From Psammoneis japonica (Eukaryota), in NCBI GenBank assembly GCA_008632985.1, contig QPGO01000341.1, forward strand, positions 1 to 51,929: a DNA stretch of 51,929 nt, in the 5' to 3' direction. Below are positions 2,090-35,283 of the stretch, piece by piece. Under the pieces are notes generated by a model. It saw nothing but the letters and a program-made list of their open reading frames with translations. It was not told the DNA's origin and made no database searches. Positions within the stretch are counted from its first letter, which is position 1; each line of letters opens with the position of its first letter. Position numbers and translations under genes: made by a program.

Positions 2090-3865
2090 TAAGCAAGAAA
2101 ATGAGGGACAGCAAAAGGAGGTGCTGAAGCTGCAGTCAAATCAGAGGAATAGAAGGAGCGCATGATGCAGGGCACAGGGCGTTTGGTGGATGGAATGGAG
2201 GAGGAGTCCTTGCAAAGGGTAGAAAGGAACTGAAGGGCATGAGCAGAGAGATGACATGTGAGATGTTGAAGCTCAATTTTTGGGTGAGCCACTGAGAGGG
2301 AGAAGAGGGCTGGTGCCTGCTGCTGAAGCAGTTGCTGGCAAGTTGGATCCAGGTGAAATCAGCAGAAGGAACAAGGGAGGTGGGAGAAGCAAGGGTGTGA
2401 AGGAAGGCAGAGCAGGAGGCATCAGAGCTGTGGAGGGCAGAGAAAGAGGGCCAAGGAGGCTTGGGCTGACAGTGGGCAGCAAGCAAGAAGACAAAAAGAA
2501 AGTGGTGAAAGAAGAAGCCAAGACCACCCAAGTGAGCAATGGCAAAAGGAAGAAGGAAGATCCCATCATTGTTGAGAGAGCCAAAGAAAAGGAGGGTCCA
2601 AGGAACTTTGATCTTGTGCTTGGCTCAAGCAGAAGTGTGCCTCAGTTGATGGCACAGGAGCAGTGAGGGTCCAGGCAGACCAGGAGGAGGGCCAAAGAAG
2701 GAGCTTTGGGCACAGTGACATCAATGGCAACACAGTGGTGATGAGAAGGGAGTGGAAAGAAAAGCAGGAGAGAAGGGGTGGAAATGCCAACATCATCTGG
2801 GCAAAGAAGGGGACAGGAGACCAAGAGTTTGCAGGCTTGATGAGATGGACATCAACAGGCAAGCAGCGTGCAACTTGGCAAGAGGCTCAAAGGTTTGAGA
2901 CATGACAAAGACAGCATCACAAAGGCCATTGGAGAGCTTGGGATTGTGGCTGTGTTGGCAAGAGAAGGCATGATCTCTGCAGGCATCCAGAATGGCATGG
3001 CCACAGGGGCAGAAGAAGGAAGGGCAGGAAGGCAGAGCTTGTGCTGACTGGGCAGTGGTGACACAGGTGCATGAGAGGATGCAAAGGCAGGTGGAAGCAG
3101 CAGAGCTGTGAGAGAGGGGGCAAAAGGGGAGGCTTGCAAGGGGGGAGAGGAGTGAGGAGGGGGGGAACTTGGACATCAGAGGGAGCATCAGCTGGGACAG
3201 AAGCAGCTGTGATGAGGAGCACAACAGAGATGGTGGGCCAGACAAGGAGTGGTTGTCACTGACTTGAAAGAGCAGATGGGCAAGTGGCAGAGGACACAAA
3301 GCCAAGGTCCAGGGACCAGGCAAAGTGGAGACAGATGCTGCAAAGGCAAAGACAAGAGTGGGGTTTGTTCCAAGATGAAAGAGAGCTTCAGGTGCTGGGG
3401 AAGAAGAGCTGTGGAATTGCCAGGTTGAAGCTGAGTTCAGTGAGTGGCAAAGCAAGAAAAGGAGCAGAGAAGTGCCACAAGGACAAAGGGGATGACAGCG
3501 GCAGAAAAGAGCCACAAAGAGTGACCAAAGCCACCAAGGGAGGCTGGGAAAAAAGCAGCAGCAAGGCAGTGATGAAAGGCGGTGCAATGAAGAAAGCAAC
3601 AGACAACAGTGAGGGCAGCACATCTCTTGAAAGAACAAGGGGGGTCGTGCAGGAGGTTTGTCAACATTGAAATTGTGGCAAAAGTTGGCACCAAAGAGGT
3701 GGGTGGAAGAAGGGATGGAGAAGTGTTCAAAGAGCCAGGCTCGACCTGGTTTGTCATGAAGGCTGGTGAGGAGTTTCTTGACTTTGGAGGAGAGAACCCA
3801 GGCTGGCCAAGGAAGCAAACACCGGAAGCAAGCTCAGGTTGTGGGATGGGGTTGAATGTCGCAAG
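2090..3865. repeat. Unclassified, heavily eroded repeat/TE remnant (TpA- and CpG-depleted, purine-rich on +)
   Basis: Abrupt compositional switch: very few TA or CG dinucleotides, unlike the flanks. No recognisable domain or termini. Confidence 0.6.
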
Positions 3866-4437
3866 GTAGCCGACAAACTCGATTGACTTGACACGATCGT
3901 CTTTCGATCAAACACAGACATTGCGGACAAGCCTTTTGCTGATCTCTCTCGGGATATGTGACCGAAATGACTTATAGATTCGGCAATAATTATGAAGTAA
4001 TCGTGAAAGATGACCACACGTGATTCTTTCGTTCAAAAGTGTACTCGGATGAAATATTTAGGGACAGTCACGAGTGGCATAAAAAGACTTAGCCAATCGA
4101 TTTCAATTCTGACTCATCACATTTTTCTATGACTTTGACATATTCTTGTATCCGGAGATACCCGTGTTTACGTTAGTTCTACGTCAAGTGAACCGAAGGC
4201 ATTTTGATCGTCGATACCGATTTATGTCGTCGATGACCAACGATGACTTTTCCTTTGTCTCTCTCTTTTTTTCCCCCAATCTCACACAAAACGACGCAGT
4301 GTTGTTCATTNGTGCATCGCGGATACACGGATAAGGAAGCATCCAAGTTGCCTTTGTCCTGTAGAGAAGAAGAAGAAGAAGAAGAAAGCCGTTCCAGTTC
4401 TATTGACGAGCCGAAGCACAACAAAGACATTCTGGCA

Positions 4438-8075: not shown

Positions 8076-8697
8076 ACTGACATTTACAAGCCTTGACTAC
8101 TCGATACAACAATAAGGATGATTCAACCCTTCCAATGTCAAGAAAAACACCGCAACCTGCTGTTCGTGACTCAGAATCAGAATCTAGCTTTTCTCCCGAT
8201 CAACAGACGCGTTTCGAAATCCGCTAAGGACTCCTTTGCTTCTAAGCAGTGTGTCACGGTCTCTTTGTTGCGCTACTCAAGACAAGGACAACAAACACAG
8301 TGCAGAGCGGAGCGGCGTTGACAGCACTTGCCCGTCTTGGTTGATTTTATGTATGTCTGCTGGTGCAAAGCCGCGTTGAGTTTTCAGTTTGGTAATCATC
8401 CCCTGTAGATTCTACGTGAAGTTCGGGTTTCTGTCATGGCGCACGTGCAAGCTACGTAGAAAGTAGTACTCGCTATTTCAGTGGTCGTACGGCAGGCGTT
8501 AAATTCGAAATATTTTTATTCAGCTTTTAGTACAACATAAAACAGTGACGGTCTGTCTGGCTCCACGTTCCAGCACAGACCTACATATCATACGGTACAC
8601 AGACAGACCCACCATACCACACGGCCATAGCAAAAAATTAAAAATGCAATGTGCGAGCCTGCAGTGTGATTGTAGGACCCTCTCTCTAGCTAGCTAG

Positions 8698-8985
8698 ACT
8701 CCTTTCAATGTGAAATACCGGCAGGTAACCAAGCCGGATGCAACACCTTTGGACTGCACCAAAACTTACCCAACTTGCAAAAGCTTCACAAAGACAGAGA
8801 CTTGCTGGTTTTCTTTGCCAATGCAGGGGGTCTTGGAAAGCCCACAACGAAGGAAACACATGAAGCAGACACAACTCTTTACGCATGGTACATGGACGTT
8901 CGAGATTCATACAGACTAGTGTCATGAAGCTGTCGAAAGAGGAATTTGAAATTTTTGGAAGACTCCTCTCAAACGCCTTGGCTCA
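8698..8985 (+). pseudogene. Short diverged copy of the DUF1501 coding segment at ~20483-20725
   Basis: Direct nucleotide similarity: 'ggcaggtaaccaagc.ggatgcaacacctttggactgcac...tggttttctttgccaa...ttggaagactc...aaacgccttggct' occurs in both places, with indels. Confidence 0.8.
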
Positions 8986-9048
8986 TTCAGGAAAATCGGT
9001 GAAGAATTTCCGAGTTTCGAAACAGTGGGAATTGGTTCTTTGATCCAT

Positions 9049-9196
9049 TGGAGAAAGCATCAGTGCCGCACCGTCTTTCATGAGTCCAAATTCAATGGAA
9101 AAAGGCAACACAGATCTCAGTGCCCACTGTGACCTTCCAAACGATCTGACAGCGGGCTCCAAGGGATTGCAACACTGAGGATGTTTGGCCGGGCTG
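9049..9196 (+). repeat. 148-bp direct repeat, TpA-converted copy of 11252-11399
   Basis: Ungapped alignment to 11252-11399 ('gagaaagcatcagtgccgcaccgtctttcatgagtcc...'). Confidence 0.95.
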
Positions 9197-9199
9197 TCA

Positions 9200-11381
9200 G
9201 ACCTCTTGAAATTCCAACCGGTGAAGTGGTCGACCAGTCTGAGCTCTTCAACTGTTCCAACTGCCATGCCATGTTCAGTGCTGCCTGCCATTCTCACGGC
9301 ATCACTGTCATCACAGCCAAGCTTGCAGCCTGGCAATTTTCCATTGACTGCTCCATTGACTGAACCGAGGGATGTGCCTTCCATGAAACCTTCATCGGGA
9401 CCATTGCCAAGTCTGTCAAATGCCCCAAGTGCAGCACCAAGCGGCGTGCCATCCTTGACACCGTCAACAAGGCATCCGTGGCATTGAGTCCACACCATCT
9501 GATTCTCCATTGATGTCACAGAGCCCAACGGGGCTGCGATCTGAGGCTCCGACGACATTGTCTGAACCCATGATTTCCAACATTTTGCATCTGCAATTCC
9601 GTCTGACACTCAACGTGATCTTCAGACAACAAGCCCACCAGCTGGACTGAGCAATTCACAGTCACCAACACCTCCTTCAGCAATGGCATCAACAGCACCA
9701 AGTGTGCAACCCAGCAATCTGTGATCAGCAGCTCCATCGAGCAAACCAAGCAATGTGCCAACACTTCCACCCTTGATGGCATCATCTTCCTTCCAGTCAG
9801 CACCGCCTTGCAACACACCATCCGCTGAGCCATCGGGTGAACCAAGCTGAAGCATGTGCCATCTCTGACACCCTTCAAATGAACCTCCTTGCACCAAGCA
9901 ACATGCCGTTGACAACTGCATCATTGGAGCTGAGCAACGCACCATTGCTCACACCTTCAACGACACCAAATCTACAACCCCTGCATCAGAACCTGGTGTG
10001 GATCTTTGTGGTGCAACATCAACAAGTGCATCCTCTCTGCTGAGTGCTGTGCTTTCATCATTGACACCGTCTGCTGCTCCCAATGGTGTCCACAGCATCA
10101 CCATCATTGCGTCCAAGCTCCGAACTTGGCGACTCACCATCGACAACACCATCAGTTGGACCGAGGGATGTCCCTCCGTGAAACCTTCAGCAGCCCCATC
10201 ACCAAGTCTGTCAGGAGACCCAAGCAGACTGTGCCAAGCATGGAACCATCAAACAATCCATCCAATGAACTGTGCGGTGTGCAATCTTCGAGAACGTCAA
10301 TGCCATCATGTGCACCATCTGTGGCACCGAGTCAAACTCCGTCTCAGCAACCATCTGCTTCGCCTTCCATGATGCCACCATTTTCTCAGCTGCCATTGAG
10401 CCAGCCTTCAGAACCAAACTCCATGGAAGAACCCAGGCCAGCAGCCATTTCGGAAGATCTGCACTCTTCCCAACCTTCTAAGACATTGTCACCTTCTTTC
10501 TCACCTTCTTCAAGTCCTCCGCATTCCAAGGCACCGTCCGGGAGACCATCATCAACTGAGTCTTCACACTCATCAGAGGCACCTTCAACTCCCAAATAAT
10601 GAAATCCTGTTGAGTTGCCCCAGCACCGACAACTTTGCCTTCGTCCAGTCGTGGACCACGACAACACTCCACCATTCAGATTGCATCAGTGGAGACTCGG
10701 AGTCTGAAACGACTTAAAGGAAATTTATCACGGGAAACATCCCACCAGTAGAATCGTTTTCGATTGATGAGCTGCTGGGTCAAGAGTGCGAATCGATTCA
10801 AACGAGATTGCAGGCAAGCGGCGAAATCCTAGTTGGAATGAACGTAGTCTAATCGGTAATATTATCCCTGCAGTCGATTCTTTTCCATTTGCAGAAGCTG
10901 TGGGTCATAGATTTGAAACAGATTTTCACCGGCTATGTTGATTCACGAAAAGACTCGTCAAGTTTCTTCCAAATGCCAAACTCTGCGGTTGGAGGAGTCG
11001 AGGGTGCACAAGAAAGTCTGGTAGCGATGCAAACGGCGTCAAACGTGCTTCGATTTTAGTTGCAATCACCGCTGCAACGTTAAGAGTTGGCATGGCTATT
11101 TCTGCTATATGGAAAAGGTATCGAGTCCGAGACACTCGAACGGAAGCTCTCTCTTTACCAAAGGCAGCATCGACTCGCTTTCCAAGGGAGTGAATTTCGA
11201 GCATTGCATGATGAAGGAAGCCACCTCTCGTCACCCGAGAAGTCCACTCTCTAGAGAAAGCATCAGTGCCGCACCGTCTTTCATGAGTCCAAATTCAATG
11301 GAAAAAGGCAACACAGATCTCAGTGCCAACTATGACCTTTCAAACGATCTGACAGCGGGCTCCAAGGGATTGCAATACTAA
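9200..11381 (+). pseudogene. Decayed Pro/Ser/Thr-rich (PSxxPS) stalk protein with a C-terminal TM-like segment
   Basis: Repeats such as 'PSLSNAPSAAPSGVPSLTPST' and 'PSVAPSQTPSQQPSASPS'. A hydrophobic stretch 'SILVAITAATLRVGMAISAIW' is followed by KRYR near 11050-11125. Many stops and frameshifts. Confidence 0.6.
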
Positions 11382-11403
11382 GGATGTTTAGTCGGGCTAA
11401 CCG

Positions 11404-11685
11404 CTAACCTGTGCGGGGAGAGACAAAGGATGCAGAACACCGTAAGGAGTCTTCGCACGGAGGAGGACTTGCGCAGTATCTTTCTGCGAGCAAGCCAGAA
11501 CTCTCGTCACCGGTAAACTCGACGGGTACAGTATCGATTCCAAGCGTCTTCGCCGTCCTCGCTGTCTTAAAATAGGTCTCTTCAAAGGGTAGTAGCACCA
11601 ACAAACCTTGGCCCTCTTTTCCAGCTCGACCTGTGCGTCCGAAGCGGTGAATGTAGTTTCCTTGATGTCGGGTTCTCCATACAGT
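11404..11685 (-). pseudogene. DEAD-box RNA helicase C-terminal fragment
   Basis: The minus strand reads 'YIHRFGRTGRAGKEGQGLLVLLPFE', i.e. helicase motif VI (HRxGRxGR). The upstream motifs are absent. Confidence 0.8.
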
Positions 11686-13356
11686 ACACCCGTTTTAATT
11701 CAGTACGAGACGATTCTTCAAACTGGGATGCTCGACCCTACTCAGGAGCGATAATGACGCGCAGCCAAGTTGCGCGTCGCTTTTCCGTTCTGGTGGGTAC
11801 TTCAACTCTTTTTGTTGTTACGCAACACGGCCGGCAGTCATCATCCAATCCATCCATCAAATAATCAAACTCGAGAGGTATCATCTTGTCTACGAAACTT
11901 GCCCCACACTGCACTCCACACTGAACTGTGCTCGAAAGCGTTTCGTTGTTTGGGATGCTCAATAAGCCCTTGTACAGGTACCGGTACATTGTATGGTGAA
12001 TGTTCCCGTTGCTCAAGTACTCTTTTGTGTGCTTTCAAAACTGGCGGTATGGTCAAGTCGATTCGACCATACGTACATTGAAGAATTTCCGACTTTCGAA
12101 CTAACGAGAATAATTGGTGCTGTGATCGACGATGCGGTGGTTGATGGTTGATGAGGATGTCAACAGCGACAAACACACAACATCATCATAGGTCTATTCT
12201 TGGATGATGAATGATGATGCATGGATCGATTTCTGGGCGAACATTCGGTCGGCCACGCGCGCACCGCGCGCGCAGTTTGCTCGAAATTCGTGGCTACGAA
12301 AAACCTACGTTGATTTTACTACCACGAGATTCTCGCCAGAGCGAGAAATCCGTTGGGCCGTCCGCGACTTGGCTCACAATTTCCAAATTCAGCCGTTTTG
12401 TTGCTGGTCGATTGTTTTTCTTTGTTGGCTTCCAAGCGGTGAGTGTTGGTCTTGTGCAGTTCCGTTCTGATTGTTGTTACGTTCGATTTCCTTGTCATGC
12501 GTCCCATGTGTCACTTCTGTTTGCAGCAACGTTGAGAGACGCTCTGGCAGGTGTCAAATGACAAATCAAAGCTCGGATTTACCGGCAGTGTCGAGTTTGA
12601 AATCGACTTGAAAAACCGTTGTCCTTTCCATCTGGCGAGAGGCAAGAATTTCTTTGTGTCGCTGTTGCATTTGTCCATTCTCCTCTTTGTGGAAGTCTCC
12701 CTGTCTCTGTCTCTCTCTGACAAACATGCTTTGTTTTCGTCTTTCCCGCAAGTGAAGCTCGGAGGTTGTCTCGCAGGCCATTTGAATCAAGCATGGCGAT
12801 GTTCACGGCACCGTCGTCATCGGATGAGGACTCACCATGGGAGGATTCACCATCAACAAATGCCCTCTGTGAAGAGCGCACTCGGGATTCGCACAATGGA
12901 AAGTCCAAACGGAGGAAGGGCAAACGAGACAATGACCAGAGTTGGGATAAAAGGCGGAAGCTGTCTGTTGAAGCGAAGCCATCAAATGAAAAGACACTGT
13001 CTCCCTGGCGCCATTTTGCCAACAACATTCCTTTGCCCGACTCGATGTTGTCCCACACTCAAGACCGTCAAAGCCATGCTGCTGCCACAAATGGGACAAG
13101 CGAATCGCATGCTGTCAAGCGAATGCCATCTTCACGTGCAGCGTCGGTAAAACGAACGAGTGAGTTTGCCGATGGAAAGCCACAAGTTTTGAACAGAAGC
13201 GCTAAAGCTGGCGGCTTCCCAGAAGAATCTTCCGTGAAGAAGCGCCAACGAGGTCCAGGTGAGATCGTGACTCGCTTTGTTTGTTTCCTGCATGATGATG
13301 GTTGTCGTCATGAAACTCACTCTTGTCAATTTCATCTCATTTGTTGAATGTGGGCA

Positions 13357-13791
13357 NNNNNNNNNNNNNNNNNNNNNNNNNNNNNNNNNNNNNNNNNNNN
13401 NNNNNNNNNNNNNNNNNNNNNNNNNNNNNNNNNNNNNNNNNNNNNNNNNNNNNNNNNNNNNNNNNNNNNNNNNNNNNNNNNNNNNNNNNNNNNNNNNNNN
13501 NNNNNNNNNNNNNNNNNNNNNNNNNNNNNNNNNNNNNNNNNNNNNNNNNNNNNNNNNNNNNNNNNNNNNNNNNNNNNNNNNNNNNNNNNNNNNNNNNNNN
13601 NNNNNNNNNNNNNNNNNNNNNNNNNNNNNNNNNNNNNNNNNNNNNNNNNNNNNNNNNNNNNNNNNNNNNNNNNNNNNNNNNNNNNNNNNNNNNNNNNNNN
13701 NNNNNNNNNNNNNNNNNNNNNNNNNNNNNNNNNNNNNNNNNNNNNNNNNNNNNNNNNNNNNNNNNNNNNNNNNNNNNNNNNNNNNNNNNNN
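13357..13791. other. Assembly gap (N run)
   Basis: 435 consecutive N. Confidence 1.
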
Positions 13792-14070
13792 GGATCACTT
13801 CCGATGGTCGCCGTGAATGCCAAGACCCCGACTTAGCCATGAGAACAATCAAAGCTGTTGGTGCTCGCAAGAAGACAACCATGTCTTTTGGTTCGACACT
13901 GACTGACACTGGATCTCAAAAACTCAGCAGTGGCGCTCATTTGAAACGGTCTGGCACCCTGTCACCACAAGCAACTGCTGCCCGTGATGCGGGCTGTCGA
14001 GGATTGCGTCAGAACACAGCTTCTGAGAAAACAAGTGAGCTTCGCGCTGCTGCTGCTGCTGCTGCTGCCA

Positions 14071-17000
14071 CAGCTGGTGCAGCAAAGCCGCCGATTCCCA
14101 CAGGACAGGAAGCTGTTGCTCCAAACGAGAAGGGGGTCCTTTGCGATGGTGCGAATCGTCCGCGTGTCCACTGCGCTCGTTCCGGCAACCCCGTCGCCGC
14201 TGCTGTGAGCACTTCTGCCGCAAGCAAGCCTGAGTCTAGAGTGCAAATAAAAGCCAGAGTCAAGAAGAAGAAACCACATTGTGCACTCAATCCCCTTCCG
14301 AGCATTCCTGAAGAGTGCGATGCAATTGATGGTGCGACTGCCAAATCCAGTCGTCATCAGAGTGGTTGTTGTGAGCAAAAGAACGGTGCAGCCAATGAAG
14401 CCATCGCAGTGGCTGCCAAAGATGCAAATGGAACCTTGGAAACGGGCAACTTGAAGGGAAAACCTTTCGTGGGAAACCGAAACCGAGGTCAAGGTAAGAC
14501 AACGACTCGCATTTCTTTTTGTCCAGTCGATCATGACTGTTCACGACAGCATTCTCATCGCCTTCATGTCAATTGTTGAGTTTAGTCGCAGTCACCAAAT
14601 CTTCGCGTGACAAGATGGGAACAGTTGGGATTTCTGATGGCGAAAAGGAAGTGGAGCGATGCAATGTGCACAAGAGCAAGGGCCGTCGGAAGAACGCAGA
14701 ACGCCCCAAAACAATCAGCGCTGACTCAACACCTGCTCAGCTCGGCAAGGTCCCTCTTTCGAGTGCTCTCGCGAGCAAAGAGAACACAGGTCCGAACGGG
14801 ACTGACCAAACCAAGACGTCTGTGAGCAATTGTGAATTCAAAATGAGTCGTTCGCAAAGAAATGCGGTTCCAGCTCCTCCACTTGTCCCAACCGGTAAAG
14901 CTGCAGCTCCCAAGAAACAGAGAACTTTACAATGTGGTGGTGAACGGTGCGGTCGTTCCGAGAACAAGAACACTGCCACCCATGAAGATGCATCATTTGT
15001 GGCAGCCCAAGCCTCGCCTTCAGTTGAAAATAGAACTCCTGAAATGGCCGGTTTGTCGAAAGGACACACCTTGAACATCACAGGCAAGAAAATGGCTCGG
15101 TTTGTTTCACTGTGCCTCGTTCTTGATGAGGAATTTATTCTCACCACTTCCACATCTCGTTCGTTGCATGTAGACGCCGATGGCGGAGCGTGCGTGACAA
15201 ACTCCGGGCATGATGTTAACGTGGACGCACCCGCTGTTACGAGTCAACTTGGGAAGATCCAAGCCAGGACGCCTGACACAAGTGTGAAATCGGGATCAAC
15301 TGAGCACACGAGGAAACAAACGGGTGCTTCTCCGGACGCATCCGTTTCCACCATGGATTTGGAAATGCCGAATTTCAAGCTTAGAGATGGTTGTCACAAG
15401 ACCACAATGAAATTTGATGAACTGGATTCATTCCCCATGCAAGAGCCTGGCAAGGAAGCAAACGAAGAAGACGTCGATGAAGAAAATGAATCTGATGCCT
15501 CGAGTGCCTTTTCTTTAGGATCTCCGCCTGTTGTTGTCACTGGCACTGCGGTCAATGCTTCATTTAGCGCTCTCGTCGCTTCGTCTGAAGAATCAAGCCG
15601 CAACCGAATCCCAGCTGGTGCAGTGAAGCCACCAATTCCCACAGGACAGGAAGCTGTTACTCCAAGCAAGAAGGGGATTCTTTGCGATGGTGCGAATCTT
15701 CCGCGTGTCCACTGCGCTCGTTCCGGCAACCCCGTCGCCGCTGCTGTGAGCACTTCTGCCGCAAGCAAGCCTGAGTCTAGAGTGCAAATAAAAGCCAGAG
15801 TCAAGAAGAAGAAACCACATTGTGCACTCAATCCCCTTCCGAGTGTTCCTGAAGAGTGCGATGTAATTGATGGTGCGACTGCCAAATCCAGTCGTTGTCA
15901 GAGTGGTTGTTGCGAGAAAAAGAACGGCACAGCCAATGAAGCCATCGCAGTGGCTGCCAAAGATGCAAATGGAACCTTGGAAACGGGCGACTTGAAGGGA
16001 AAACCTTTCGTGGGAAACCGAAACCGAGGTCAAGGCAAGACAACGACTCGCATTTCTTTTAGTCTGGTCGATCATGACTGTTCACGACCGTGTTCTCATC
16101 GCCTTCATGTCAATTGTTGAGTTCAGTCGCAGTCACCGAATCTTCGCGTGACAAGATGGGAATGGTTGGGATTGCTGATGGCGAAAAGGAAGTGGAGCGA
16201 GGCAATGTGCACAAGAGCAAGGGCCGTCGAAGGAACGCAGAACGCCCTGAAACAATCTGCGCTGACTCAACACCTGACCAGCTTGGCAAGGTCCCTCTCT
16301 CGAGTGCTCTCGCGAGCAAAGAGAACATGAGTCCGAACGGGACTGACCAAACCAAGACGTCTGTGAGCAATTGTGAATTCAAAATGAGTCGTTCGCAAAG
16401 AAATGCGGTTCCAGCTCCTCCACTTGTCCCAACCGGTAAAGCTGCAGCTCCCAAGAAACAGAGAACTTTACAATGTGGTGGTGAACGGTGCGGTCGTTCC
16501 GAGAACGAGAACACTGCCACCAATGAAGATGCATCATTTGTGGCAGCCCAAGCCTCGCCTTCAGTTGAAAATGGAACTCCTGAAATGGCCGGTTTGTCGA
16601 AAGGATACACCTTGAACATCACAGGCAAGAAAATGGTTCGGTTTGTTTCGCTGTGCCTCGTTCTTGACGAGGAATTTATTCTTGCCACTTCCACATCTCG
16701 TTCGTTGCGTGTGGACGCCGATGGCGGAGCGTGCGTGACGAACTCCGGGCGCAATGTTAACGTGGACGCACCCGCTGTTACGAGTCAACTTGGGAAGATC
16801 CAAGCCAGGACGCCTGACATAAATTTGAAATCGGGATCAACTGAGCACACGAGGAAACAAACGGGCACTTCTCCGGACGCATCCGTTTCTACCATGGATT
16901 TGGAAATGCCGAATTTCAAGCTTAGAGATGGTTGTCACAAGACCACAATGAAATTTGATGAACTGGATTCATTCCCCATGCAAGAGCCTGGCAAGGAAGC

Positions 17001-17152
17001 AAACGAAGAAGACGTCGATGAAGAAAATGAATCTGATGCCTCGAGTGCCTTTTCTGTAGGATCTCCGCCTGTTGTTGTCACTGGCACTGCGGTCAATGCT
17101 TCATTTAGCGCTCCCGTCGCTTCGTCTGAAGAATCAAGCCGCAACCGAATCC
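14071..17152 (+). repeat. Tandem duplication, two 1541-bp units (14071-15611, 15612-17152)
   Basis: Constant 1541-nt offset (e.g. ORFs at 14862 and 16403), with CAG microhomology at the junction. Confidence 0.97.
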
Positions 17153-18844
17153 CAGGTGAGAATGTGACTCGCTTTTTCTTGCTGATGTGATTTCATTGTT
17201 GTTGACACTACCTCTTGCCGGCATCATTTCATTTCATCGAACACAGACACAGAAAACAGATCTTCTGATGAGTGTGAGAGGCAGTTTGATGTTTGCGACT
17301 CTGTTGAAGAAGAGGAAGAAGAAGCCAAGGCACCCACTCTTCCCACGACAGCCGGTGACCGTGAAGCTGGTGGGTGGCGTTGCTTTCCCATTCAAGGAGC
17401 GTCCGATGGGCGAGGCCTGGTTTCGAATGCAACCGCTGATGCGACTGAGACCAATGGGTCAACGGATCCAGCAAGCAAATCCACTGCCACTTGCTCGAAT
17501 CAATCAGTTTCTAACATGTCATCTGGTTTGCTGAACAGAGACAATGGATCGTCTGGCCATGGTGAAACGCAGCTTGTTCTTCATGACTCTGACGAAGAAG
17601 AGGAAGCAGATGAAGCCAAAACACCCACACTTTTCATGACGGCCAGTGGCTGTGAAGTTGCCAGAGACTTGGGTGGCTCTATTATTGAGGGAGCGTCCGA
17701 TGCCACGACTGAAGATGCCGAAGAAGCTGTGAGTGAAAGCAACAATTTGGATAGGATAGATTTAGGGGCTCCACCTGCTGCTACGACCGGGAACTCCGAG
17801 CCAGCTGACAACAGGACCAGCGAATCGTCGAGACTAGTACGCCATGTCAAGAGATGCAAAAGTGGTGCAGGCGCCAGGGTAATGACCCTAGCCGAGGCTT
17901 CAAAAGCCGGATTAAGCTTCGCTAAAGGGCTTGTACCGGTAGGCTATTGCATTCCGGACACGCTTCATCTTATTTTCCGTAACATGGTTCGTGACAAAAA
18001 CGTGAGAAGGGAACTTAAGATGTCCAAACCGGCGATTCGAAAGGGAATTAGGCAACTGGGTAGCGTCCGAGAAATACGTCCCTTTTTGTGCGAGCAAAGG
18101 ATTTGAGGCGCAACTGTTGTGCCGTGAAGAATATCAGAGTAAAGTGGCGTTGCTTCTGAAAGAAGAAGGCGTATATCTTGTCATCGTGGATTGCATAGAC
18201 AGATTCCTTGGCGTGACGGCCAAGCATGCAGTGGCATATTTTGCGAAGCAAGGTATCCTCGTAGACACTGAGCCTTGCCCGCGCTTTGTCGAGCTTGACG
18301 TAAAGGATCGCAAGACGCTTAAGGGCCGAAAGAGAATGTCCACCAAGATAGCAAAGAGCATCTTTAAGCGATTATTTTGCGGCGAAGAAAACACAATATT
18401 TGAAGCATACCAGATTTCAAGGAAAGTGGATCCGACCGGATTTGAACTCTTGGATGAACTGGAAGAAAAGGAAAAGCAGACCTACTAGAGAGCAAGACGC
18501 GTAAGAAACGGGTAATTAGGTTCGATAATTAACTGTATAGCGCAATGACGCCATTTTGTAAACCACTGCATAAATTTGTAACGAGAGACTAAAGTTGGTA
18601 GCGCCACCGTCTGTTTAGGTATTCTTGTGCAAGCATTCCAGAGACGCGGTGACAGCCCAAGTTCGGACCATGGAAAGAGTTCAGCATGAAATTCGACAAG
18701 GAGTTCATAAGAATGACCTAAATGATGTCAACGAGCCGTTGATCCACAGTCACGTCTTCTGTAGTTCACCAAAGGGCGGATGCGGTGTCAGGGTCATACC
18801 AAAAACAATGTTGTCTATCACTGGGCAAAAACTCTATGCGAACT

Positions 18845-21322
18845 GAAGGTGAAGGTCAGCCCACGCGGTTGAGTGGCCATTGTCGACGACGTGCCCGTTG
18901 TCAACGGCAAGGTGCGCCATGTTGATGAAAGCACGACCAATTTCTTCAAGGTGGTTTGGTATAACGGGTTTCCAAAAGCATCGCTTAACAATTGTGGTGA
19001 ATGCGCCGTGGTTGACGAGGAAAACTGCTTATGCAATACTCAAGTCGAAGAAACCATGGTGTTAATGTGAATTCAATTCTCTCAGCTTTGAGTGTTGGGG
19101 CGCTTGACCCAAGTTCCTTCGATAGCGGTACGTATGCCTCAACGAGACTTAATGATTCCATCACTGTACACAAAAGGTATTCAAGGATGGGGGGCGATAA
19201 AATATTCGAAGTCGAGGACTCGACCGGCCGCACTCATTTTTTGAAGAATGTCAGATCAATTGTGAAGGTCCAAGGCAGGTTTTCATTTAGAAACCCCGTT
19301 CACTTTATGAGTCTCGTACCTTCAGAAACCAACGTTCAGGATGTCATGTACGAAGTGGACGAGTTGCTTAAGCACTTGCTGTGCCATCCAAATACTCCCC
19401 GTTCCTGGTCACATTGCTTATTCAGTGATTTGGTATCTCGAATCCTAGTCCGCGATATGTTGCTGAGTGCTCGGCAGCCTTTCGGACCGGGGTTTACAAG
19501 TATACCGAGCTTTCGTTCGGTAAAGCAGAGTACGGGGACCTATTTGCGACATCTGTGTGCATTCAACTTGACAGAGAAGCTTGATCAGCTATTCTCGACT
19601 CAGATCCGTCCCACGGATCCATCAGAGAGCCTCTCCTAAGGGTGTTTACCCAGCATGATGCGGAGCATGGATTTCCAATCAAAATCTCGCGATGGCGTTC
19701 CGGCTCTTCAGGTTATTTTTATGCACATGAACATTTTTAGCTTCTTTCGCAGGTAATTTATGGACACGTGCAGAGGGCAAACGCAACGTTACAATCATTC
19801 CTCATGAAAAATGATGTTGGCTTGATTTCTCTATCAGCAAGTTCGCACCTGAAGGGCCGGTATCGAGCGCATCACTTGTAGCTGCAGAAGCTCAGCTCCC
19901 AGACGTACGTACTCGCACCCTTCTTTCCCTTGCTGCTTTTGTTTCATTTCTTTTGCTCAGCATTTTGTTTCAAATTCTTGTTTCCATGGAGAAGATGGCA
20001 AAGAATATTAACCTCGTGAATGGTTTGCACTCCCTCGTCAAGTACGGGCTATCATCGTGTGCTTATTTCTTTGGCTTTGATTCACAAGAATTCAGAGAGA
20101 GGATTTGCACGAATGACGGCAACTTTGCCGACTCCACCGGTGTGTTAAAATATAAACAGAGGGGAACAACGCACAGAGCGTCATAAATGAGCTTGCTACC
20201 TTGCTCACATCCGGCCGCTTAGAGCCCAAAACCGAAACGTCATCGCCAAGGCTTACAAAGACGCCCTCTGTCAAGCAGACGCAGGTACTGTACCGCCTTG
20301 CACGTGGGTGGACAAGTGGCTGTTGAAAAGGATGAATACAGGGCAGTTGTGGTGCTCATATTAGACGGATGATGCGATTCTTTCAACATGCTCGTCCCAC
20401 ACAATCGCCGAGTGCAGAATGGGGCTGACGCATATTCGCGATATGCAATAGCAAGAGACTCAGTACGCTTGCCGCGGAAGAGACTCCTTTCAATATCGGC
20501 AGGTAACCAAGCTGGATGCAACACCTTTGGACTGCACGAAAAGATACCCAACTTGCAGAAGCTTCGCAAAGATAGAGACTTGGTTTTCTTTGCCAACGCG
20601 GGGGTTCTTGGAAAGTCCACAAGGAAGGAAACGCATGAAGCAGACACGCCGACACAACTCTTTGCCCATGATACATCGACGTTCGGTCGGAGCAGGAATT
20701 CTTGGAAGACTCGCAAACGCCTTGGCTGTCGGTAAGGCCTAGCATCCTTGTCAATTGATACAGTTCAATTGTTTTGGACGGCAAGCAGGGAGTGTCCGAT
20801 CCGCCGACATCATTGAGCAACACCGGAGTCAATCGGTTCGTGCCAATTGGTTCCGCCACCATGGCAAAGGCCGAAATGGAGCGAGCCATGGGTTATCTCA
20901 ACAACGCCACAAAACCAGACAGCAGCTTTATGGCCAGCACTTGGTCAACCTTGTTGCTCCAATCCCTCTGCCAGAATGAAGATTTGCACCAAGTTCTAAA
21001 ATCAACCTGCGTGACCCAGGATTTTGGTGAAACCGACTTGGGGAAAAAGTTCGAGATCAAAGTAAGTGGAAGGAATGCGGATGTCTTTTATCTGGAACAT
21101 GGCACCTGGGACCACCATGCGGGGTTAGGGGAAGGCCTCGCAAACAACTTTTCCGAGCTTATCGATGCGATTGGATCTTTCGTTGCCGAGTTCAAAAGTC
21201 AAGGAAATTACGACAGTGCCATTATAGTTCTGGCATCCGATTTTGGAAGAACTTTGAGCGCAAACTCGGGAGGTGGAGCTGACCATGAATGGGGCGGAAA
21301 TTACTTTATGCTCGGAGGCGGT
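18845..21322 (+). pseudogene. DUF1800-DUF1501 fusion gene (diatom-type), decayed and 3'-truncated
   Basis: 'FSFRNPVHFMSL', 'HPNTP', 'FGISNPSPRYV', 'HGSIREPLLRV', 'LATLLTSGRL', 'DSFNMLVPH', 'FGLH', 'WDHH', 'SDFGRTLSANSGGGADHEWGGNYFMLGGG'; multiple stops, frameshifts and deletions. Confidence 0.85.
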
Positions 21323-21725
21323 ATGGACTTGGTTCGTCCGATGTACCGTGTCATCCAACGGTTTGTTGTTCGTCTTCGGGGGAAGGATGATGCTGCTACC
21401 CCGCTCTCTATCTATTGTTCGGCGGGCAGCCATGTGGTCCTGATCACCTCTGAAGAAATTGAGGACTGTGTGCGGGATATCGCCGCGTATCTGTATAAAC
21501 TTGATCCCATCAAGGATGCAGACGCGATCAACCGCTGGTCGTCCCACTCTCTTCGGGTTCGTGCTGGTGCATTGCTGCACCAGATGAATTTTGGTGCGGA
21601 GTCCATTCAATGGCTCTTGCGATGGAGGTCTATGGCCTTTTTGGTATACTTGCGCAACAGCACCTTGTTGTCGGATCGACAATGCAGGGCTCTTGATCGC
21701 ACCCTTGGCATGCCTCACCTTTTCA
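21323..21725 (+). mobile_element. C-terminal half of a tyrosine recombinase (DIRS/Ngaro- or Crypton-like remnant)
   Basis: 'WSSHSLRVRAGALL...IQWLLRWRSMAFLVYLRN' matches the HxLR...RW.S.....Y catalytic signature of TE tyrosine recombinases. Confidence 0.8.
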
Positions 21726-22219
21726 AAATTTTTAATTTTCAAATTTTCAATTATTCCCTTTTCTCTACATTTTCGAATATCTTTATTCGACCGTTCGGTT
21801 ATCTAAAATATTTTATTATATATAAGATAAATGCAATCTGGTCTCGAGTGTGTTGTTTTTCTTACACGGCATGTATGTTGCTCTTTGCATCGATGTTCAC
21901 ACTTGGCACACACCAAGCCAAAAAGGTCTCCCCCATTGCCCCCGTTTTTGAATTCTAGGGGATTCCCCAGTGTGTTAAAAAAATCTCCTTCCCAAAACCC
22001 CAAGCTTGCTTTTCATGCAGCATGTTTACGTTTCCCTGCTTCGGAGCCACACAATCTGTCCGTCAACCCTCCCGAGAGTGATGGCTTGTGGCTTAAACCC
22101 CCCTTTTGTCTTTTTCTTTTTTCTGGCTGGCTGCATTGCCCCCCAATGAAATGGGCGTGCACACTGCACTTTGTGTCGGCAGCAGCATGGTCTGTTCACA
22201 CAGTGCAGGGGGGGCTGAC

Positions 22220-24180: not shown

Positions 24181-24405
24181 TGCGATGACTCTCATCTGAG
24201 AGTTTGGGGGAGTTGACTGAAGGTTGAATGACAAGTGCATTGCTGGCGGCAGGGCTGACAACAGCAACAGAATTGATGAAGCTGCCAATGTCTTGTTACA
24301 CTGGATGTTGTAATTGTGAGAAGTTCTTGAGAAAAGCAAGGTGGCAAACTGCATGCACAAGCACAAAAGTGCGCAAATCGCGCATGAGTTTGCACTGTGT
24401 TGGCA
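24181..24405 (-). repeat. 3' LTR of Copia B
   Basis: TG...CA termini; ungapped match to 31137-31361; adjacent PPT GAGAGGGAG at 24406-24414 on the minus strand. Confidence 0.92.
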
Positions 24406-26801
24406 CTCCCTCTCAAACAAAGGAGCTGCCAACCGCAAAGCAACTTAAGAACAGACTTGAATTTAACAGTGACGAGCCCTTTGGTCACAATGTCAGTGTG
24501 TTGCAAGTCTGTTGTGATCTTGGATGCAGTGACTTGGTTTGGTTTCAGCTGTGAACGAAACCAGCGACACTTGATTGCACAGTGCTTGGATCTTGGTGTG
24601 ACTTGGCCAGGTTCCATGTTGGCCAGAGTCAAAGCTCCAGCATTGTCCTCCCACACAGCGGTCCTGATGGTCTTGGTGGTTCTCAGACCAACTCCAATGC
24701 CTTGAGAAATGGCTTGCATGGTGCAAAGGAAGGGAAGGACAGTTTTCATGCAAGTGGAGAGAGCGCTGCACTCTGCCTCCATTGTTGAGAGTGTGATCTC
24801 AGGTGCAAGCTTGCCAGGCTGGATGACAGGACAGTTCGAAATGCAAATGACGAATCCTGTTTGGCTCTTGACACAAGCCAGGTCTTGCTTGTCTTCATCA
24901 TGTGGCCACAATCCAGCAAAATCTGAGTCCACAAAGACATCAATGTTGAAGTCACCTCATGGCTTGAGGATCAAACCTTCCTCAAGCATCCATTTTGAGC
25001 ATCTGCCAATCCTTTCAAGGGCCAGTTCATGCAAGCAGCGTGGACTGTGAACAAATTGTGCTGCAGAGCTAACTGTGCAGGTGATGTCAGGCCTGGAATG
25101 GCCTTGAAGATGCTGGCATGATCAAAGGCTCCATTCGGCGGGTCTCCACCAGTGTTCTTGACCAATGGAGCAGCCAGTGCAGGCGTTTGGGCCTTTGGCA
25201 GATGGCCTGCATTGAGGGCTTTGATGACACATCTGGCTGGACCGCTCTGAGTGAGCTTGACAGTGCCATCGTTGGTGTCGCTGTCAATGTGTGCACCTGA
25301 AAAGCCTGCAATGGAATCTTTGACTTCGATGGCCAGACCGCCATTGACTTTGAGTTTTTTGACACCACGTTGATGTGCTCTTGCTTTGGAGAAAAGAACA
25401 ATGTGTCGTCAACATGCACAAGGCAGATGACTTTGTCAGACACAAAGAGACACGGATCAACATCATCCTGTGATTAAAATCCGGTGTCTTTCAATTTTGA
25501 TTTAAGGTGCAGGAAGAAATTTCGTGGTCCTTGATTGAGACCATGCATGGTGCCTGGAGCATCCTCGTGGCATTTGTGTGAACATGCCAGAGCATCCCCG
25601 CTCTTTGGATGTCATGGCATCCCATTTGGGATCCTTGTCAATTGGAGCATGCACAAAAGCAGCAACACTGTCGACTTGCTTGGTTGAGAGCTCCAGAATT
25701 TGGGAAAGCACAAGCATCAACTGCGCTGTTGTCCAATTGACAACTGGAGCAAAGGCATCAAAGCAATCAACACCCTCCAATTGCTCATCACTGCAGACAC
25801 AGAACCGGGCTTCACATTTTCGGATTGCACCATCAGGGTGCCATTTGCATTTGAAGGCCCAAGTGGATGGCAAGACATTCATCCAGTCTTGGCAGTCAAC
25901 TTCTTCCCAGGCGTCTTTTCCATTGACAAGGGAATCAATTTCAACATCACAAGCCTTGAGACAGGCTGCACAATTGGGTCCACTCATTGCTTCTTCCCAA
26001 GTGGGGTCATCCACAGAGTTTGCATTGGCTGCAAGGGCTAAAGGACGCATCTCCTTGAGTGCACCATGGACTTGATCGGCATTTTTGTTGAAGACATTGA
26101 TCATTGCACGTAAGTCTTTTGACCCCGGTGCGTTTGTGATGCCATCCCATTGCAGTGCCATCAAAAACTGCTCATTCAGTGCACCTGACTTTGCTGAGTG
26201 TTTGGGATTCTTGCAGGCAGTTGGCAATTCGTTGGACGGAGTTCGAGTGTCAGCTTTCACAGCTTCAATGAGACGGTCTGGTTTCTTGACGGTTCAGCCG
26301 CTTCAAGTCCAAGCAGGAGTTGCAGTGGCATTTTGAGCCAATTGGAGAGGCTCTGCTTTGTCAGAACCAAAATCCAGGTTGTCAGGTGAGTCGTGATGAT
26401 CAACAAGTGATGATTTGCAGTTGCTGTCATCACTGAACCCATCAATTTCGACTCCCTCTGGAGCCTCTAAAGTCACAGATTCTAGATCATCCAATGATTC
26501 TGCATTGTTGGTGGGAAGCTCTCCCTCTGGAGCTGAGACAGAAGAGGCAGGAGTTGGAGGAGGAATGCTGGCAGAGTGTTGTTGTTGTCACAACTTGCAC
26601 ATCTGACAACAGCTCTTGCGGTGGCGGCACTCTTCTGGCATCAGCCAATTGTCGCGTGTCACCAGGAGTTGGTGGCGAGGGTCCCAGGAGGGCTCTTGTG
26701 CGTGAGCATGGTTGACTGCAGAGTCAGCAGTGAGCAGGGATTCCCAGACGTTGGCGGAGAATGGGGCATCTTGGAAGAATCCCCCAGAGTCGCTGTTGGG
26801 T

Positions 26802-27248
26802 TGCAGCATGCATGCAGACAAAAGGTTGTTTTTGTCACGCCCTTTGTGACATTTAAAGGCTGCAACACGTCGCCGTGACACATTGGCTCTTGCCAGCAGC
26901 TGTGTGTTGCACTCCTCCCCATGTGTCACGCGTCCATGCGGCTCTTTACTGACGTGTGCTGACACTGCACGGTTTTGGCGGAACAGTGTGGGTACGTGCG
27001 AAGGAACACACAGAACTGCACAGAGTTTTGCGCGTTCGACAGTGATCAACGTTGCTGCAGACAACTCCCACTCAGGGTTTCGAACCCCTGGCCTCCTGCC
27101 CAATGGTTGCGATGAACCACTCCGCTGTGAATTCACAATGCAGCATGCATGCAGACAAAAGGTTGTTTTTGTCACGCCCTTTGTGACATTTAAAGGCTGC
27201 AACACGTCGCCGTGATACATTGACTCTCATCAGTGGCTGCACATTGCA
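26802..27248 (-). mobile_element. 447-bp mini-LTR element (TRIM-like): 110-bp LTRs (26802-26911, 27139-27248), PPT and 4-bp TSD
   Basis: Both repeats run TGCA...TGCA. PPT GGGGAGGAG at 26912-26920 (minus). GGGT at 26798-26801 and 27249-27252. It interrupts the Copia B integrase region. Confidence 0.88.
27063..27134 (-). other. tRNA-like sequence with Pol III A-box and B-box inside the mini-LTR element (not a canonical tRNA)
   Basis: Minus strand: CAGCGGAGTGG (A-box-like; GCG/CGC D-stem), then GGTTCGAAACCC (B-box; T-loop TTCGAAA). The anticodon arm is poorly formed. Confidence 0.6.
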
Positions 27249-30200
27249 GGGTGCCATTGAAAAGTGGTCATCATGGACCACATGGTGTTGGGGGCCAACA
27301 AAGCCTGTCGTGAGATTGAGGATCAGGCCAATGTCAGTGGAGGGTGCTGGGGACATGCCAAGGCAAGTTTCTGATGGAGTGGGAGAAGCTCCTTTTGACC
27401 TGGCATAAGGTTCTGGTTGGTTTGCGAAGTGATGGACAAAAAGGTGTTCAGCTGGAAAGTGGTGCTGACAGGAGCCACATTGCATTTGGAGACTCCGGCA
27501 GATGTCGGGTCGGACATCATCATGAAAGGCAGGTCGCTGTCCTCATTGCATGGAAACTCAAGGGCATCACCACTTGGGAGAGTCAGTGTGGTTTCATTGC
27601 CACCTGCCAAACATTCACCTTGATTGCCATTTTTTAAAAGTGGGGCTGAGGGCTGAAAAGGTGAACGGAAGCATCAGGGATGCAATGAGCCTCACAGTTC
27701 TGATGGTGCAAACAACATTCCAGCAGTTGATTGTGCCCCATTCCACGTGACCTTGACCAACTGCTTGGGCGGCAGAGGACAAACCATTGACAGTGGTCAA
27801 TTCAGCGGGTTCCAGGGGGCCAGCAAAGTCACTCAAATGCGGAGCGAGGGAAGAAGAGGCGCCATTGTGGAGTGCCACGAGCGCATCAACAGGTGAGGCT
27901 GATGACAGAGCTTGACATTGGGAGCTGTCAAGTTGTTGCAAATTGGCTGGCAACTTGATTGGTCTCATCATGTTGTCAGAGAGCCAGGGTGGATCCAGCA
28001 AGGATGCATCAGCAAGGGATGGTCCTGTTTTCAAGGTTTGGCGGGAGAACACAGCTGCTCTGCCAAAGCCACCACTCAAGCAGGTTGCTGCTGTCACATG
28101 GGACAGGTTGGTGGCAACACAAGAGAGTGTTGGTGCTTCACCTCAAGCATGCAACACATCCGATGAGGCAAGTGCTTTGATCATGTGAAATTGTGCAAGT
28201 GGATTGATGCCTTGCACAAACTTGTCTGATGGGGTGCCACACTGCATGTCACACACAATCCAAGTTTGGTGTGGCAGTCGGTGTTTGATGTGGAAGTGCT
28301 CCTTGAGTTTGTGTTCTTTGGGGTCTTCAGGTGGTGCAAAGTTGGATGGATTTGAATCAGCAGGGTCAGATTCTGCAGTTTTAGTCCACAGACAATTGCC
28401 CAATGGATCAAGCAACATGACAAAATTGGTTGGCATTGCACCGTGTGGCAAATCGCACATCTTGTAGGGCAGATGCAGCAATTGAGCACAAGCTTTGTTG
28501 GCTTCTTGGATGGGATCAACGCAAGCAAACCTGGGTTTTTTTGGCTTCGGAGGTTTGATTCGACGTTTTGATTTTAACAATTTTGAGGACTTGGATTGAC
28601 GACACTGCTTGAAATCCTGTTCTTCAATGGCAGTGTTGTCAGGAACTGGCACGCAACATGTTTGGAGCCAAGTTGTTGGATGGTGGAAAGATTGCAAGGG
28701 ATCTCTTCATGGGTGTCGAACTGGACAACGGCACAAATGACGCATGTGCGCATGATGGTTTAATTTGTGGTGCGATTGATGATGATGCGGATGTTGATGC
28801 AAGGTGTGCTCCAAAGATGGGGTGACAACAAATGCAGGCATCTTGTCATGTGACAGCAAAGGATTCTTGGAAAAGAGCAGCAAGTGGAAAAACACTGCAG
28901 AATGGCAGAGACGGCTGTGTCTCCTCCCTCTCAAAGAATCTGGAGAGCAAACCACAGGAAGAGGGACTGCGCCGCAGTCACATGAGCCTGGATGTCCCTT
29001 CCAGGACAGCAAGATTGGAGAGGGGTGGGCTGTGCACTTGAGAAGGGAGGTGCACCCAAAGCTTCAAGAGAAGGAAGCAAAGAGACCCTTGATGGTCTCA
29101 GTGACCTCGTGCTGAGCATTTGCAATGGCCACTTCATGTTCAAGATTAGGAGCAGAAGCAGGGGCTGGAGCAGGGGCTGGGGCAGGAGTGGGTGCGGCCA
29201 GAGGTGCAGCAGCAGCACCAGTGACTTGAGCCATGGGACACCAGCACTTGGTCTTGCAATGATGACAATGATCTCTACCATCAATGTTGTGGCAACTGTC
29301 GTTGTTCTTTTTGGCTTCAGTCGGTGGCTGCCACTTCTTGGGAATGGTTTCTGTGGGTTCACCATCCCTCTTGGCTGAAGTGTCATTCTTGCTCTGGGCT
29401 CATTTTGCATCAAAAAAACAGTTTCTTGTTGGCATGAACTCAAGCCTTGTCAACAGGCTTCTTGCAATCAGACAAGGTGTGTGGACCACTGCAATTGAAG
29501 CATGTGACCACACCAGTGACAAAGGAGGTTGCACTCTTCTTGGTGGTGTGACACCTGACCACTTGTTGGAAGAGACTGGAGACAAATGCTGTTTCTTGGC
29601 AAATTCAAGAAGATCAGAAACTGAAGGTGTGTCAGCCATTGTGGTCATCAGCATGCAACGGGACTTGAACTTGTTGACCTTGGTGTCTTTGGCAAGATGG
29701 TCAAACAGTTCATTGAACTCAGGGACACTTGAAGTTTGAAAGACTTCAGCAAGTTTCTACATGAAGTTGGCGGGAATGACAGATTGACCCTTCTGATCTT
29801 GAAGATTTTTGAGTTGTGAACATCCACCATGGATGAGAGAGACAACTTTGCTTGCATCTTTGCCGTCAAAGTTGGATGTCTTGAGGTTGGACATGGCAGC
29901 AACCAAGTGACAAGCAGCCTCTTCTGAGTTGCTCTAGAGGAGCTTCATCACAAGGATGAAAAACAAAGGTCCACCTTGCTCCTCTTGTGAGCACTTGAGG
30001 CAGGTCTCGTTGACTTTCTTCTGAAGGGTGCACAAAGCATTCCTTTCAAAGCAGCCACTGGTGAGATGAAGGTTTTGGCTGGCCCAAGTCCCATTGGGAT
30101 CCTCAAGCATCACAGCGTGCCACTTGTTGCCAGCGGTGACTTCCTTTTTGGTGACAGTGGAGTGTTCCGAGCAAAGGTCATGAGTCGTGCAGGTGTCAGG

Positions 30201-31010: not shown

Positions 31011-31124
31011 GTCAACCGGACATCGATGTTCTGAAAGAAGAAGTGTACGTAAAAATGTACAGAGCTCAATTCTTGTCCAACTGAGAGAATGAGATGAGCG
31101 CAGGAGTCATCAAGCATGATGCTT

Positions 31125-35185: not shown

Positions 35186-35283
<98 letters not shown>

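Follow-up and report, generated by a model that had tools for sequence, protein, structure and literature searches.

We analysed a window of 51,929 nucleotides (nt), positions 1 to 51,929 of contig QPGO01000341.1 in the Psammoneis japonica assembly GCA_008632985.1, in which a 148-nt duplicate is present in two states: one copy (copy A, 9049-9196) has no TpA dinucleotide, and the other (copy B, 11252-11399) has six. It is very likely that copy A lost its TpA through a targeted hypermutation of this dinucleotide extending over whole domains of the window, the TA of copy B being the ancestral state and the TG and CA of copy A the derived ones. The pair was merely caught up in this domain-wide process, and on its own it gives the weakest support for it. 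The strong evidence for TpA erasure comes from the two long terminal repeats (LTRs) of a dead copia retrotransposon, from the tyrosine codons of the same element and from one domain, D3.

The window is a mosaic, which was defined from 1-kilobase (kb) and 200-nt profiles together with the list of TpA positions. Its overall observed-over-expected ratios are 0.22 for TpA, 0.49 for CpG and 1.59 for CA/TG, and the normal DNA, amounting to 15.1 kb of the window, has 3.95% TpA and 5.68% CpG among its dinucleotides. All expected counts were taken from this normal-DNA rate of the window itself. On that basis domain D1 (2221-3866) contains 0 of 65 expected TpA and 7 of 94 expected CpG; D2 (8918-10714), which has no Pfam match, contains 3 of 71 TpA and 55 of 102 CpG; D3 (12581-17679), a domain with long plus-strand open reading frames (ORFs), contains 36 TpA against 184 expected and 266 CpG against 265 (265.1), the run of N at 13357-13791 being left out of its counts; and the 28-kb D4 (22095-50367) contains 108 of 1117 TpA and 314 of 1607 CpG. 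The borders of all four domains are sharp at the scale of 100-200 nt. Inside them the observed-over-expected ratio of TpA is 0.01-0.13 with AA, AT and AC unchanged, CA and TG rise to 1.6-2.0 times expectation, and other dinucleotides are as in normal DNA. Between 32 and 48 kb the ratio is 2.02 for TG and 1.88 for CA, which means that both strands are about equally affected, and AA shows no depletion, with ratios of 1.19 inside the domain and 1.17 in normal DNA.

Each of the two copies of the duplicate matches the composition of its own surroundings. Copy A lies within D2, 130 nt from its border, and copy B, 0.5 kb outside this domain and in normal DNA, is untouched, with a TpA content of 4.1% that compares with the 3.95% of normal DNA; the claim of the first-pass annotation that only one of the two copies had been hit is supported by this placement. 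Among the 148-nt stretches of normal DNA 165 of 14221 are free of TpA, and not one of the 35637 in the TpA-poor domains has at least six.

A gapless alignment of the copies, offset by 2203, shows differences in 9 of the 148 columns, and every one of them pairs a G or C of copy A with an A or T of copy B. The TpA of copy B are at 11252, 11331, 11376, 11379, 11389 and 11398; opposite them stand TG at 9049, 9128, 9176, 9186 and 9195 and CA at 9173 of copy A. The remaining three differences are at 9125 (C in copy A, A in copy B), 9137 and 9189 (both C in copy A and T in copy B), and the five CpG at 9067, 9072, 9142, 9153 and 9190 of copy A occupy the same columns as those at 11270, 11275, 11345, 11356 and 11393 of copy B. 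The alignment confirms all of these counts as the first-pass annotation had given them, including its remark that two of the TpA sites stand at the alignment edges: the repeat search returned a gapless core of 145 nt (9051-9195 and 11254-11398, 95%), and the edge sites 9049/9050 and 9195/9196 are the last one or two homologous columns and insecure, leaving four secure TpA sites and two at the edges. In copy A six of six TpA were replaced (four of four secure ones) vs three changes at the 136 other columns, and the rate of change at TpA in D2 was thus far above background. A test for context enrichment had also been suggested. In a hypergeometric test of transitions by dinucleotide context, with copy B as ancestor, the 80 A/T sites include 12 TpA bases, and these took six of the eight transitions (p=7e-5), or four of the six in the core (p=0.0012). 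Enrichment was therefore found in this direction, and it fails in the core when copy A is taken as ancestor, as discussed below.

A degenerate Ty1/copia LTR retrotransposon occupies 24181-31361 of D4 on the minus strand, with pol frames at 27878-24429 and a purine-rich tract just upstream of its 3' LTR. Its ORF of 263 amino acids (aa) at 25505-26293 has 9347 relatives (best E=7.7e-77); the three long ones that were checked (1425-1683 aa) contain RVT_2 plus gag_pre-integrs and/or SH3_retrovirus, and in tblastn these polyproteins are colinear on 27878-24429 of the minus strand. This agrees with the Ty1/copia organisation, in which integrase, RVT_2 reverse transcriptase and RNase H follow each other in this order between direct LTRs. 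The 150 best copia homologues served as outgroup for the codons of the element, using the 306 columns in which 8 or more homologues were present and 60% or more of them agreed. None of the 10 consensus tyrosine (Tyr) columns is kept, the replacements being CAT (His) in four, TGC (Cys) in two, Phe in two, Ser in one and Gly in one, whereas 219 of the 275 other residues excluding arginine (Arg) are kept (Fisher p=2.5e-7). The conversion of TAY into TGY or CAY in pol shows TA to be the ancestral state and TG/CA the derived one, and the loss of TpA is mutational. Arg survives in 10 of the 21 columns where it is the consensus, and nine of those without it now read TGA, TGG, TGY or CAR, the footprint of CpG decay.

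The LTRs place the changes after integration. The 3' LTR (24181-24405) and the 5' LTR (31137-31361), both 225 nt long, on the minus strand and with TG...CA ends, are direct repeats of each other, and by the established mechanism of retrotransposition the two members of such a pair start out identical. Over 227 aligned nt they now show 38 differences, namely 37 transitions and one transversion, and over 201 nt their purine/pyrimidine identity is 1.00 vs a nucleotide identity of 0.84. Since they were identical at insertion and have now diverged, the changes arose in DNA after integration. The pair has 13 swaps between CA and TG, and a swap of this kind requires TA or CG in the ancestor, with a separate resolution in either copy.

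Swaps between CA and TG were found in 10 of the 11 within-domain duplicates detected by self-BLAST, with 4 in the D2 pair, 12 and 2 in D3 and 13, 7, 7, 14, 3 and 1 in D4; the pairs without swaps are a D4 pair over 89 nt and a 25-nt exact match without any difference. The D2 pair is an internal repeat of 135 nt (9295-9429 and 10091-10224). In D3 a tandem duplication of 1.54 kb on the plus strand (14071-15617 and 15612-17158, 95.5% identical) shows 57 transitions, 12 transversions and 12 swaps, as well as nine sites with TA in one copy and TG or CA in the other, which indicates that the process continued there once the duplication had arisen. No swap is present in the cross-domain A/B pair, nor in the sole duplicate with both members in normal DNA (8696-8902 and 20481-20685, 83% identical, with 11 transitions, 7 transversions and 18 gap columns). 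The tyrosine columns and the swaps support, outside the pair, the earlier claim of a TpA-specific process.

The normal/normal duplicate may be regarded as a local control for the ordinary substitution pattern. A strand-coordinated (processive) action was also considered and rejected, the orientation of swaps (those with CA in the first copy to those with TG in it) being 9:3 for the D3 tandem duplication and 6:7 for the LTRs, neither of them significant.

The first-pass annotation had proposed that the process is separate from CpG decay, and D3 supports this, as it lost four fifths of its TpA at exactly normal CpG count. With CpG intact in D3 and all five kept in copy A, TpA loss is separable from CpG decay. 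Depletion of CpG accompanies that of TpA in D1, in D4 and partly in D2, and the borders of both coincide in D1 and D4. Thus, TpA erasure and CpG decay may share targets, and they are distinct processes.

The three sequencing runs come from one sample, probably the source of the assembly, with no independent individual among them. A separate assembly of the public reads of run X1 yielded a contig of 2135 nt (depth 33) that agrees with 9147-11281 at every position (0 differences), from the right end of copy A over the TpA-free stretch and normal DNA to the left end of copy B, and so excludes an artefact of assembly or polishing. Moreover, read contigs related to D2 show swaps between CA and TG relative to the window at 9801/9802 and 9811/9812. 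Many other read contigs match 8300-12300 at 80-95% identity, which indicates that paralogues or divergent haplotypes exist.

The TpA that survived in the domains differ in their flanks from those of normal DNA. The base 5' of T, pooled over strands, is skewed (chi-square p=4e-23), and by the base 3' of A the residual and normal counts are 67 and 120 for A, 47 and 117 for G, 26 and 190 for C, and 7 and 170 for T. ATAT, GTAT/ATAC and GTAC are almost gone, TTAA and CTAA/TTAG being the best survivors. The CA/TG contexts able to yield new TpA are mildly A-rich, which is insufficient for the observed skew. We infer from these survivors, as distinct from observed events, a target preference of TAT and TAC over TAG and of TAG over TAA on the strand with the changed A.

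Most likely, A:T pairs in 5'-TA-3' are converted inside the domains into G:C on either strand, TA giving TG when the top-strand A is changed and CA when it is the bottom-strand A, and repeated rounds exhaust the TpA of a domain. The process acts on integrated DNA within sharp borders, reaching the dead copia retrotransposon as well as other, unannotated DNA, possibly with silent chromatin or small RNA as the means of targeting. Its role may be defence against mobile and foreign DNA, in a mirror image of fungal repeat-induced point mutation (RIP). As to the chemistry, a TadA/ADAT2-like enzyme may deaminate adenine to inosine in DNA, with replication fixing G, and to this part of the proposal we give about an even chance. 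In tRNA, A34 follows U33, and this 5'-UA context is the natural target of TadA and ADAT2-3. To our knowledge, no enzyme has been shown to perform TpA deamination in any alga.

The putative link to a TadA/ADAT2-like enzyme is taken from the proposal of Mettrop et al. (bioRxiv 10.64898/2026.01.13.699255). According to the accessible part of that preprint, mutation-accumulation lines of Bigelowiella natans gave 302 new point mutations in the nuclear genome, 231 of them in two integrated viral regions, and 230 of these 231 were A>G or T>C, all 230 at TpA, at rates of ~6e-7 per site per generation, ~1000x background. The same part reports 124 TpA-depleted, CpA+TpG-enriched clusters in the B. natans genome and an enrichment of reverse-transcriptase and transposase domains in its TpA-poor genes, and puts forward an ADAT2-like adenine deaminase, untried there, as a defence against invading DNA.

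Some observations must be set against a targeted TpA hypermutation of copy A. The A/B pair by itself is only suggestive and cannot set its own polarity, which we take from the domain of copy A in place of a direct polarisation. A search for an outgroup of the 148-nt unit with a 24-nt core gave 0 matches in metagenome contigs. Copy B lies just 3' of the C-terminal ORF of a DEAD-box helicase (11407-11694, minus strand), and the 73 loci retrieved via this helicase C-end were generic DEAD-box relatives, 0 of them with the 148-nt unit (best BLAST match 22 nt). With copy A as ancestor, four of the six transitions of the core fall in CA/TG context (p=0.12). The outcomes in copy A are uneven, TG 5 vs CA 1, but with no significant departure from 1:1, and one read contig (joint 9176->11426) may be a B-type variant with an A-like letter at 9173/11376. 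A few of the 306 consensus columns, near frameshifts, may derive from overlapping tblastn segments. As for the targets, foreign or mobile DNA is demonstrated for part of D4 alone: no recognisable transposon or viral gene was found in D1, D2 and D3 with Pfam, and the ESM Atlas gave no usable match for a 527-aa ORF of D3. Among the 93 ORFs of at least 90 aa outside D4, Pfam placed DUF1501 and GTP_EFTU alone above its cut-offs, and no deaminase and no methyltransferase. Finally, adenine deamination and a thymine-directed chemistry are indistinguishable by sequence.

A thymine-directed chemistry is the main mechanistic rival, although we consider it unlikely. It keeps the same process and targets, and the T of TpA would be oxidised or modified (5-hydroxymethyl- or 5-formyl-uracil type), pair with G and end as C, so that TA would become CA on the modified strand and TG on the opposite one. 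In double-stranded sequence A>G and T>C are the same event, and this chemistry therefore fits the tyrosine, LTR and swap data equally. Thymine hydroxylation concentrated in TpA has been described for dinoflagellate DNA, and 5-formyluracil gives A:T->G:C. However, nothing in the window is informative on a thymine hydroxylase, and an enzyme reading the strand with the A would account no less well for the 3' pyrimidine preference. The sole experimental precedent proposes, in its accessible part, an ADAT2-like adenine deaminase, itself without enzyme proof (10.64898/2026.01.13.699255).

A reversal of the polarity is much less probable. Copy A would then be the original, from which a duplicate left its TpA-free domain for normal DNA, and copy B would have gained TpA by G:C->A:T changes at CpA/TpG, through RIP-like deamination or AT-biased mutation. 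The nine differences do all run in the usual direction of mutation bias when read from A to B, and six of the eight transitions hit the 29 G/C sites, out of 77, that are in CA/TG context (p=0.029), but this enrichment is not significant in the core. Moreover, evidence elsewhere in the window, from the Tyr codons and the LTRs, shows that the state of copy A's domain is the derived one, and the TpA content of copy B is not raised over that of its surroundings. RIP affects both copies of a duplicate, and here one copy is left without any TpA, in an organism that is diatom-like and not a fungus. Sequences altered by RIP have TpA/ApT above about 0.89 and (CpA+TpG)/(ApC+GpT) below about 1.03; the two values are 0.60 and 1.64 in copy B, 0.58 and 1.15 in its surroundings, 0.03 and 1.78 in D2, and 0.07 and 1.99 in D4. 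With no TpA excess in copy B or around it, the classical CpA-to-TpA RIP on copy B that the first-pass annotation had named as its refutation is unsupported.

Editing of RNA can be given hardly any credit. In this case an ADAR-type A-to-I change of double-stranded transposon RNA would be fixed by reverse transcription and re-integration; a retrotransposon is indeed present in D4, and the 5' U preference of ADAR-type enzymes, as it appears in the accessible part of the preprint, would give UA->UG (10.64898/2026.01.13.699255). However, the LTRs of a single integrated element diverged by the same changes, hence after integration, the two strands are about equally affected, AA is not depleted, and copy A and D3 are affected though they are not retroelements. 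The 3' preference of T and C over G and of G over A is also unlike that of ADAR. The swaps in the LTRs, the duplicates and the read contigs exclude RNA editing fixed by retrotransposition, and with it inherited composition and selection against TA. Just as negligible is the case in which no mutation process took place and the domains are foreign DNA with its own composition, or were selected against TA (by a TA-cutting nuclease or TA-targeting transposons), or are an artefact: their sharp compositional borders resemble inserted foreign DNA, but conserved Tyr turned into Cys or His codons and Arg into stops in a dead element is decay and not selection, changes in place are seen in the LTRs as well as in the tandem copies and in copy A, a duplicate of normal host DNA, and the read assembly has TpA-free and normal DNA in one contig without differences.

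Two host genes were recognised by Pfam in the normal DNA, both on the plus strand: an ORF with a DUF1501 domain (20759-21955) and the GTPase domain of eIF5B (GTP_EFTU, 51460-51927). In a search collection that includes MMETSP and EukProt data, the best named relatives of the eIF5B ORF are diatoms at 60-68% identity, no protein, named or not, exceeds 68%, and all the named ones among the best 120 are diatoms. The DUF1501 ORF matched unnamed metagenome proteins, an ORF of 778 aa had a single hit, also unnamed, and the clusters of the copia homologues carried no names. A relic dinoflagellate spliced-leader motif was searched for with at most two mismatches and gave 11 matches vs 11.7 expected.

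The surroundings of the two copies have a complex structure. A 33-nt match (9000-9032 and 12079-12111, 82%) contains an exact seed of 14 nt. Its members are found 16 nt to the left of copy A and 680 nt to the right of copy B, in reverse order relative to the 148-nt units, and the single TpA of the B-side copy is CA in the A-side copy. This suggests that the A locus is a rearranged patchwork of pieces of the B locus. Among the read contigs, one variant of the B locus (2 contigs, depth 144) lacks 11380-11425, another has 11364-11414 replaced by 124 other letters, and a diverged relative covers 11146-11363 and 11415-11531 with 44 letters different.

The domains have further features of their own. 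D1 is purine-rich on its plus strand, with 37% G, 33% A, 14.5% T and 16% C, the GC skew being 0.36 and the AT skew 0.32 at 2-4 kb. In D3 the run of N is a scaffold gap of 435 N; a single N is also present at 4311. The D3 tandem duplication lies within a run of plus-strand ORFs (13314-18106; 421, 527, 370 and 306 aa, with overlapping ends) that has no Pfam or Atlas match and may be a large repetitive gene caught in the hypermutation domain. In D4 the pol of the copia element is in several broken frames, for which Pfam gives a sub-threshold RVT_2 alone, and a six-frame Pfam search of the whole domain, with stops read as X, gave only this sub-threshold match and a poly-Q artefact; standard annotation probably misses the element. 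A target-site duplication was looked for in its 5-nt flanks, which mismatch. A (CAA)n microsatellite of ~36 units at 35178-35283 is the source of spurious poly-Q protein matches. An inverted repeat of about 410-430 nt (41276-41687 and 46351-46760, 66% identical, the D4 pair with 14 swaps) may represent the ends of another degraded mobile element.

It is possible, at somewhat less than even odds in our estimation, that a diatom-like stramenopile also has a defence based on domain-targeted adenine deamination of DNA which, without depending on cytosine methylation, would clear TpA (TAY preferred) from silenced transposons and the DNA next to them. If so, then together with the chlorarachniophyte case it would form, across eukaryotes, an ancient and broadly distributed counterpart to fungal RIP with the opposite chemical direction, and any genome could be read for it by its TA-free, CA/TG-rich islands. 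The 2026 B. natans preprint (10.64898/2026.01.13.699255), as far as its accessible part goes, is the sole description of targeted A:T->G:C hypermutation at TpA that we found in the full-text literature. The present window adds a second, diatom-like lineage, an erasure run to completion, proof from LTRs that the change took place in the chromosome once the element was inserted, one domain in which TpA loss and CpG decay come cleanly apart and a flank preference that could serve for testing candidate enzymes. If the phenomenon is general, islands free of TA and rich in CA/TG would offer a simple genomic sign that eukaryotes have a second kind of genome defence by mutation. The affected elements would escape gene finding and repeat annotation, as Tyr becomes Cys or His and Arg becomes a stop, and a natural enzyme system turning TA into TG on double-stranded chromosomal DNA would be of interest for base editing.

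Among the known systems, the decay of CpG through 5-methylcytosine has the same products, TpG and CpA, but is unable to remove TpA. Its footprint is seen in the Arg codons of the copia pol (CGN to TGN or CAN), and CpG depletion is found in D1, in D4 and partly in D2, not in D3. The hypermutation by APOBEC3 and ADAR in animals is similar in that deaminases disable retroelements and viruses. However, APOBEC changes plus-strand G into A while the element is being reverse-transcribed and ADAR acts on RNA, both leaving one-strand, pre-integration footprints, whereas the footprint in the window is two-stranded and post-integration. The TadA and ADAT2-3 tRNA deaminases and their DNA-acting relatives, namely the adenine base editors and, as cited in the accessible part of the preprint, the amphioxus ADAT2, convert A into inosine, which is read as G (10.64898/2026.01.13.699255).

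Fungal RIP, as known from ascomycetes, shares more with the erasure of TpA described here: it is regional, acts on DNA after integration and on both strands, ruins transposons within sharp borders and involves the same set of dinucleotides, CA/TG and TA. The direction is the opposite one, since RIP turns CpA/TpG into TpA by C->T and enriches TpA, whereas here TpA is turned into TpG/CpA by A->G and erased. Moreover, only one copy of the 148-nt duplicate is affected, and duplication as a trigger is thus not demonstrated.

The footprint in the window is the same as that of TpA hypermutation in B. natans, with A:T->G:C changes at TpA, TpG and CpA as products, confinement to certain parts of the nuclear genome and a TpA-poor, CpA+TpG-rich result (10.64898/2026.01.13.699255, accessible part). 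There are also differences. The erasure is near complete here, with the low TpA ratios given above, whereas the region of B. natans derived from a nucleocytoplasmic large DNA virus (NCLDV) has a Rho of 0.45 in the portion of the preprint that could be consulted. That portion gives TpA alone as the target, whereas a preference of TAY over TAG and of TAG over TAA is indicated here. The identified target in the window is a copia retrotransposon, plus a duplicate of ordinary host DNA, and CpG decay accompanies the loss of TpA in three of the four domains. Finally, the host is diatom-like by its eIF5B and not B. natans, the search collection with its MMETSP and EukProt data containing no near-identical protein.

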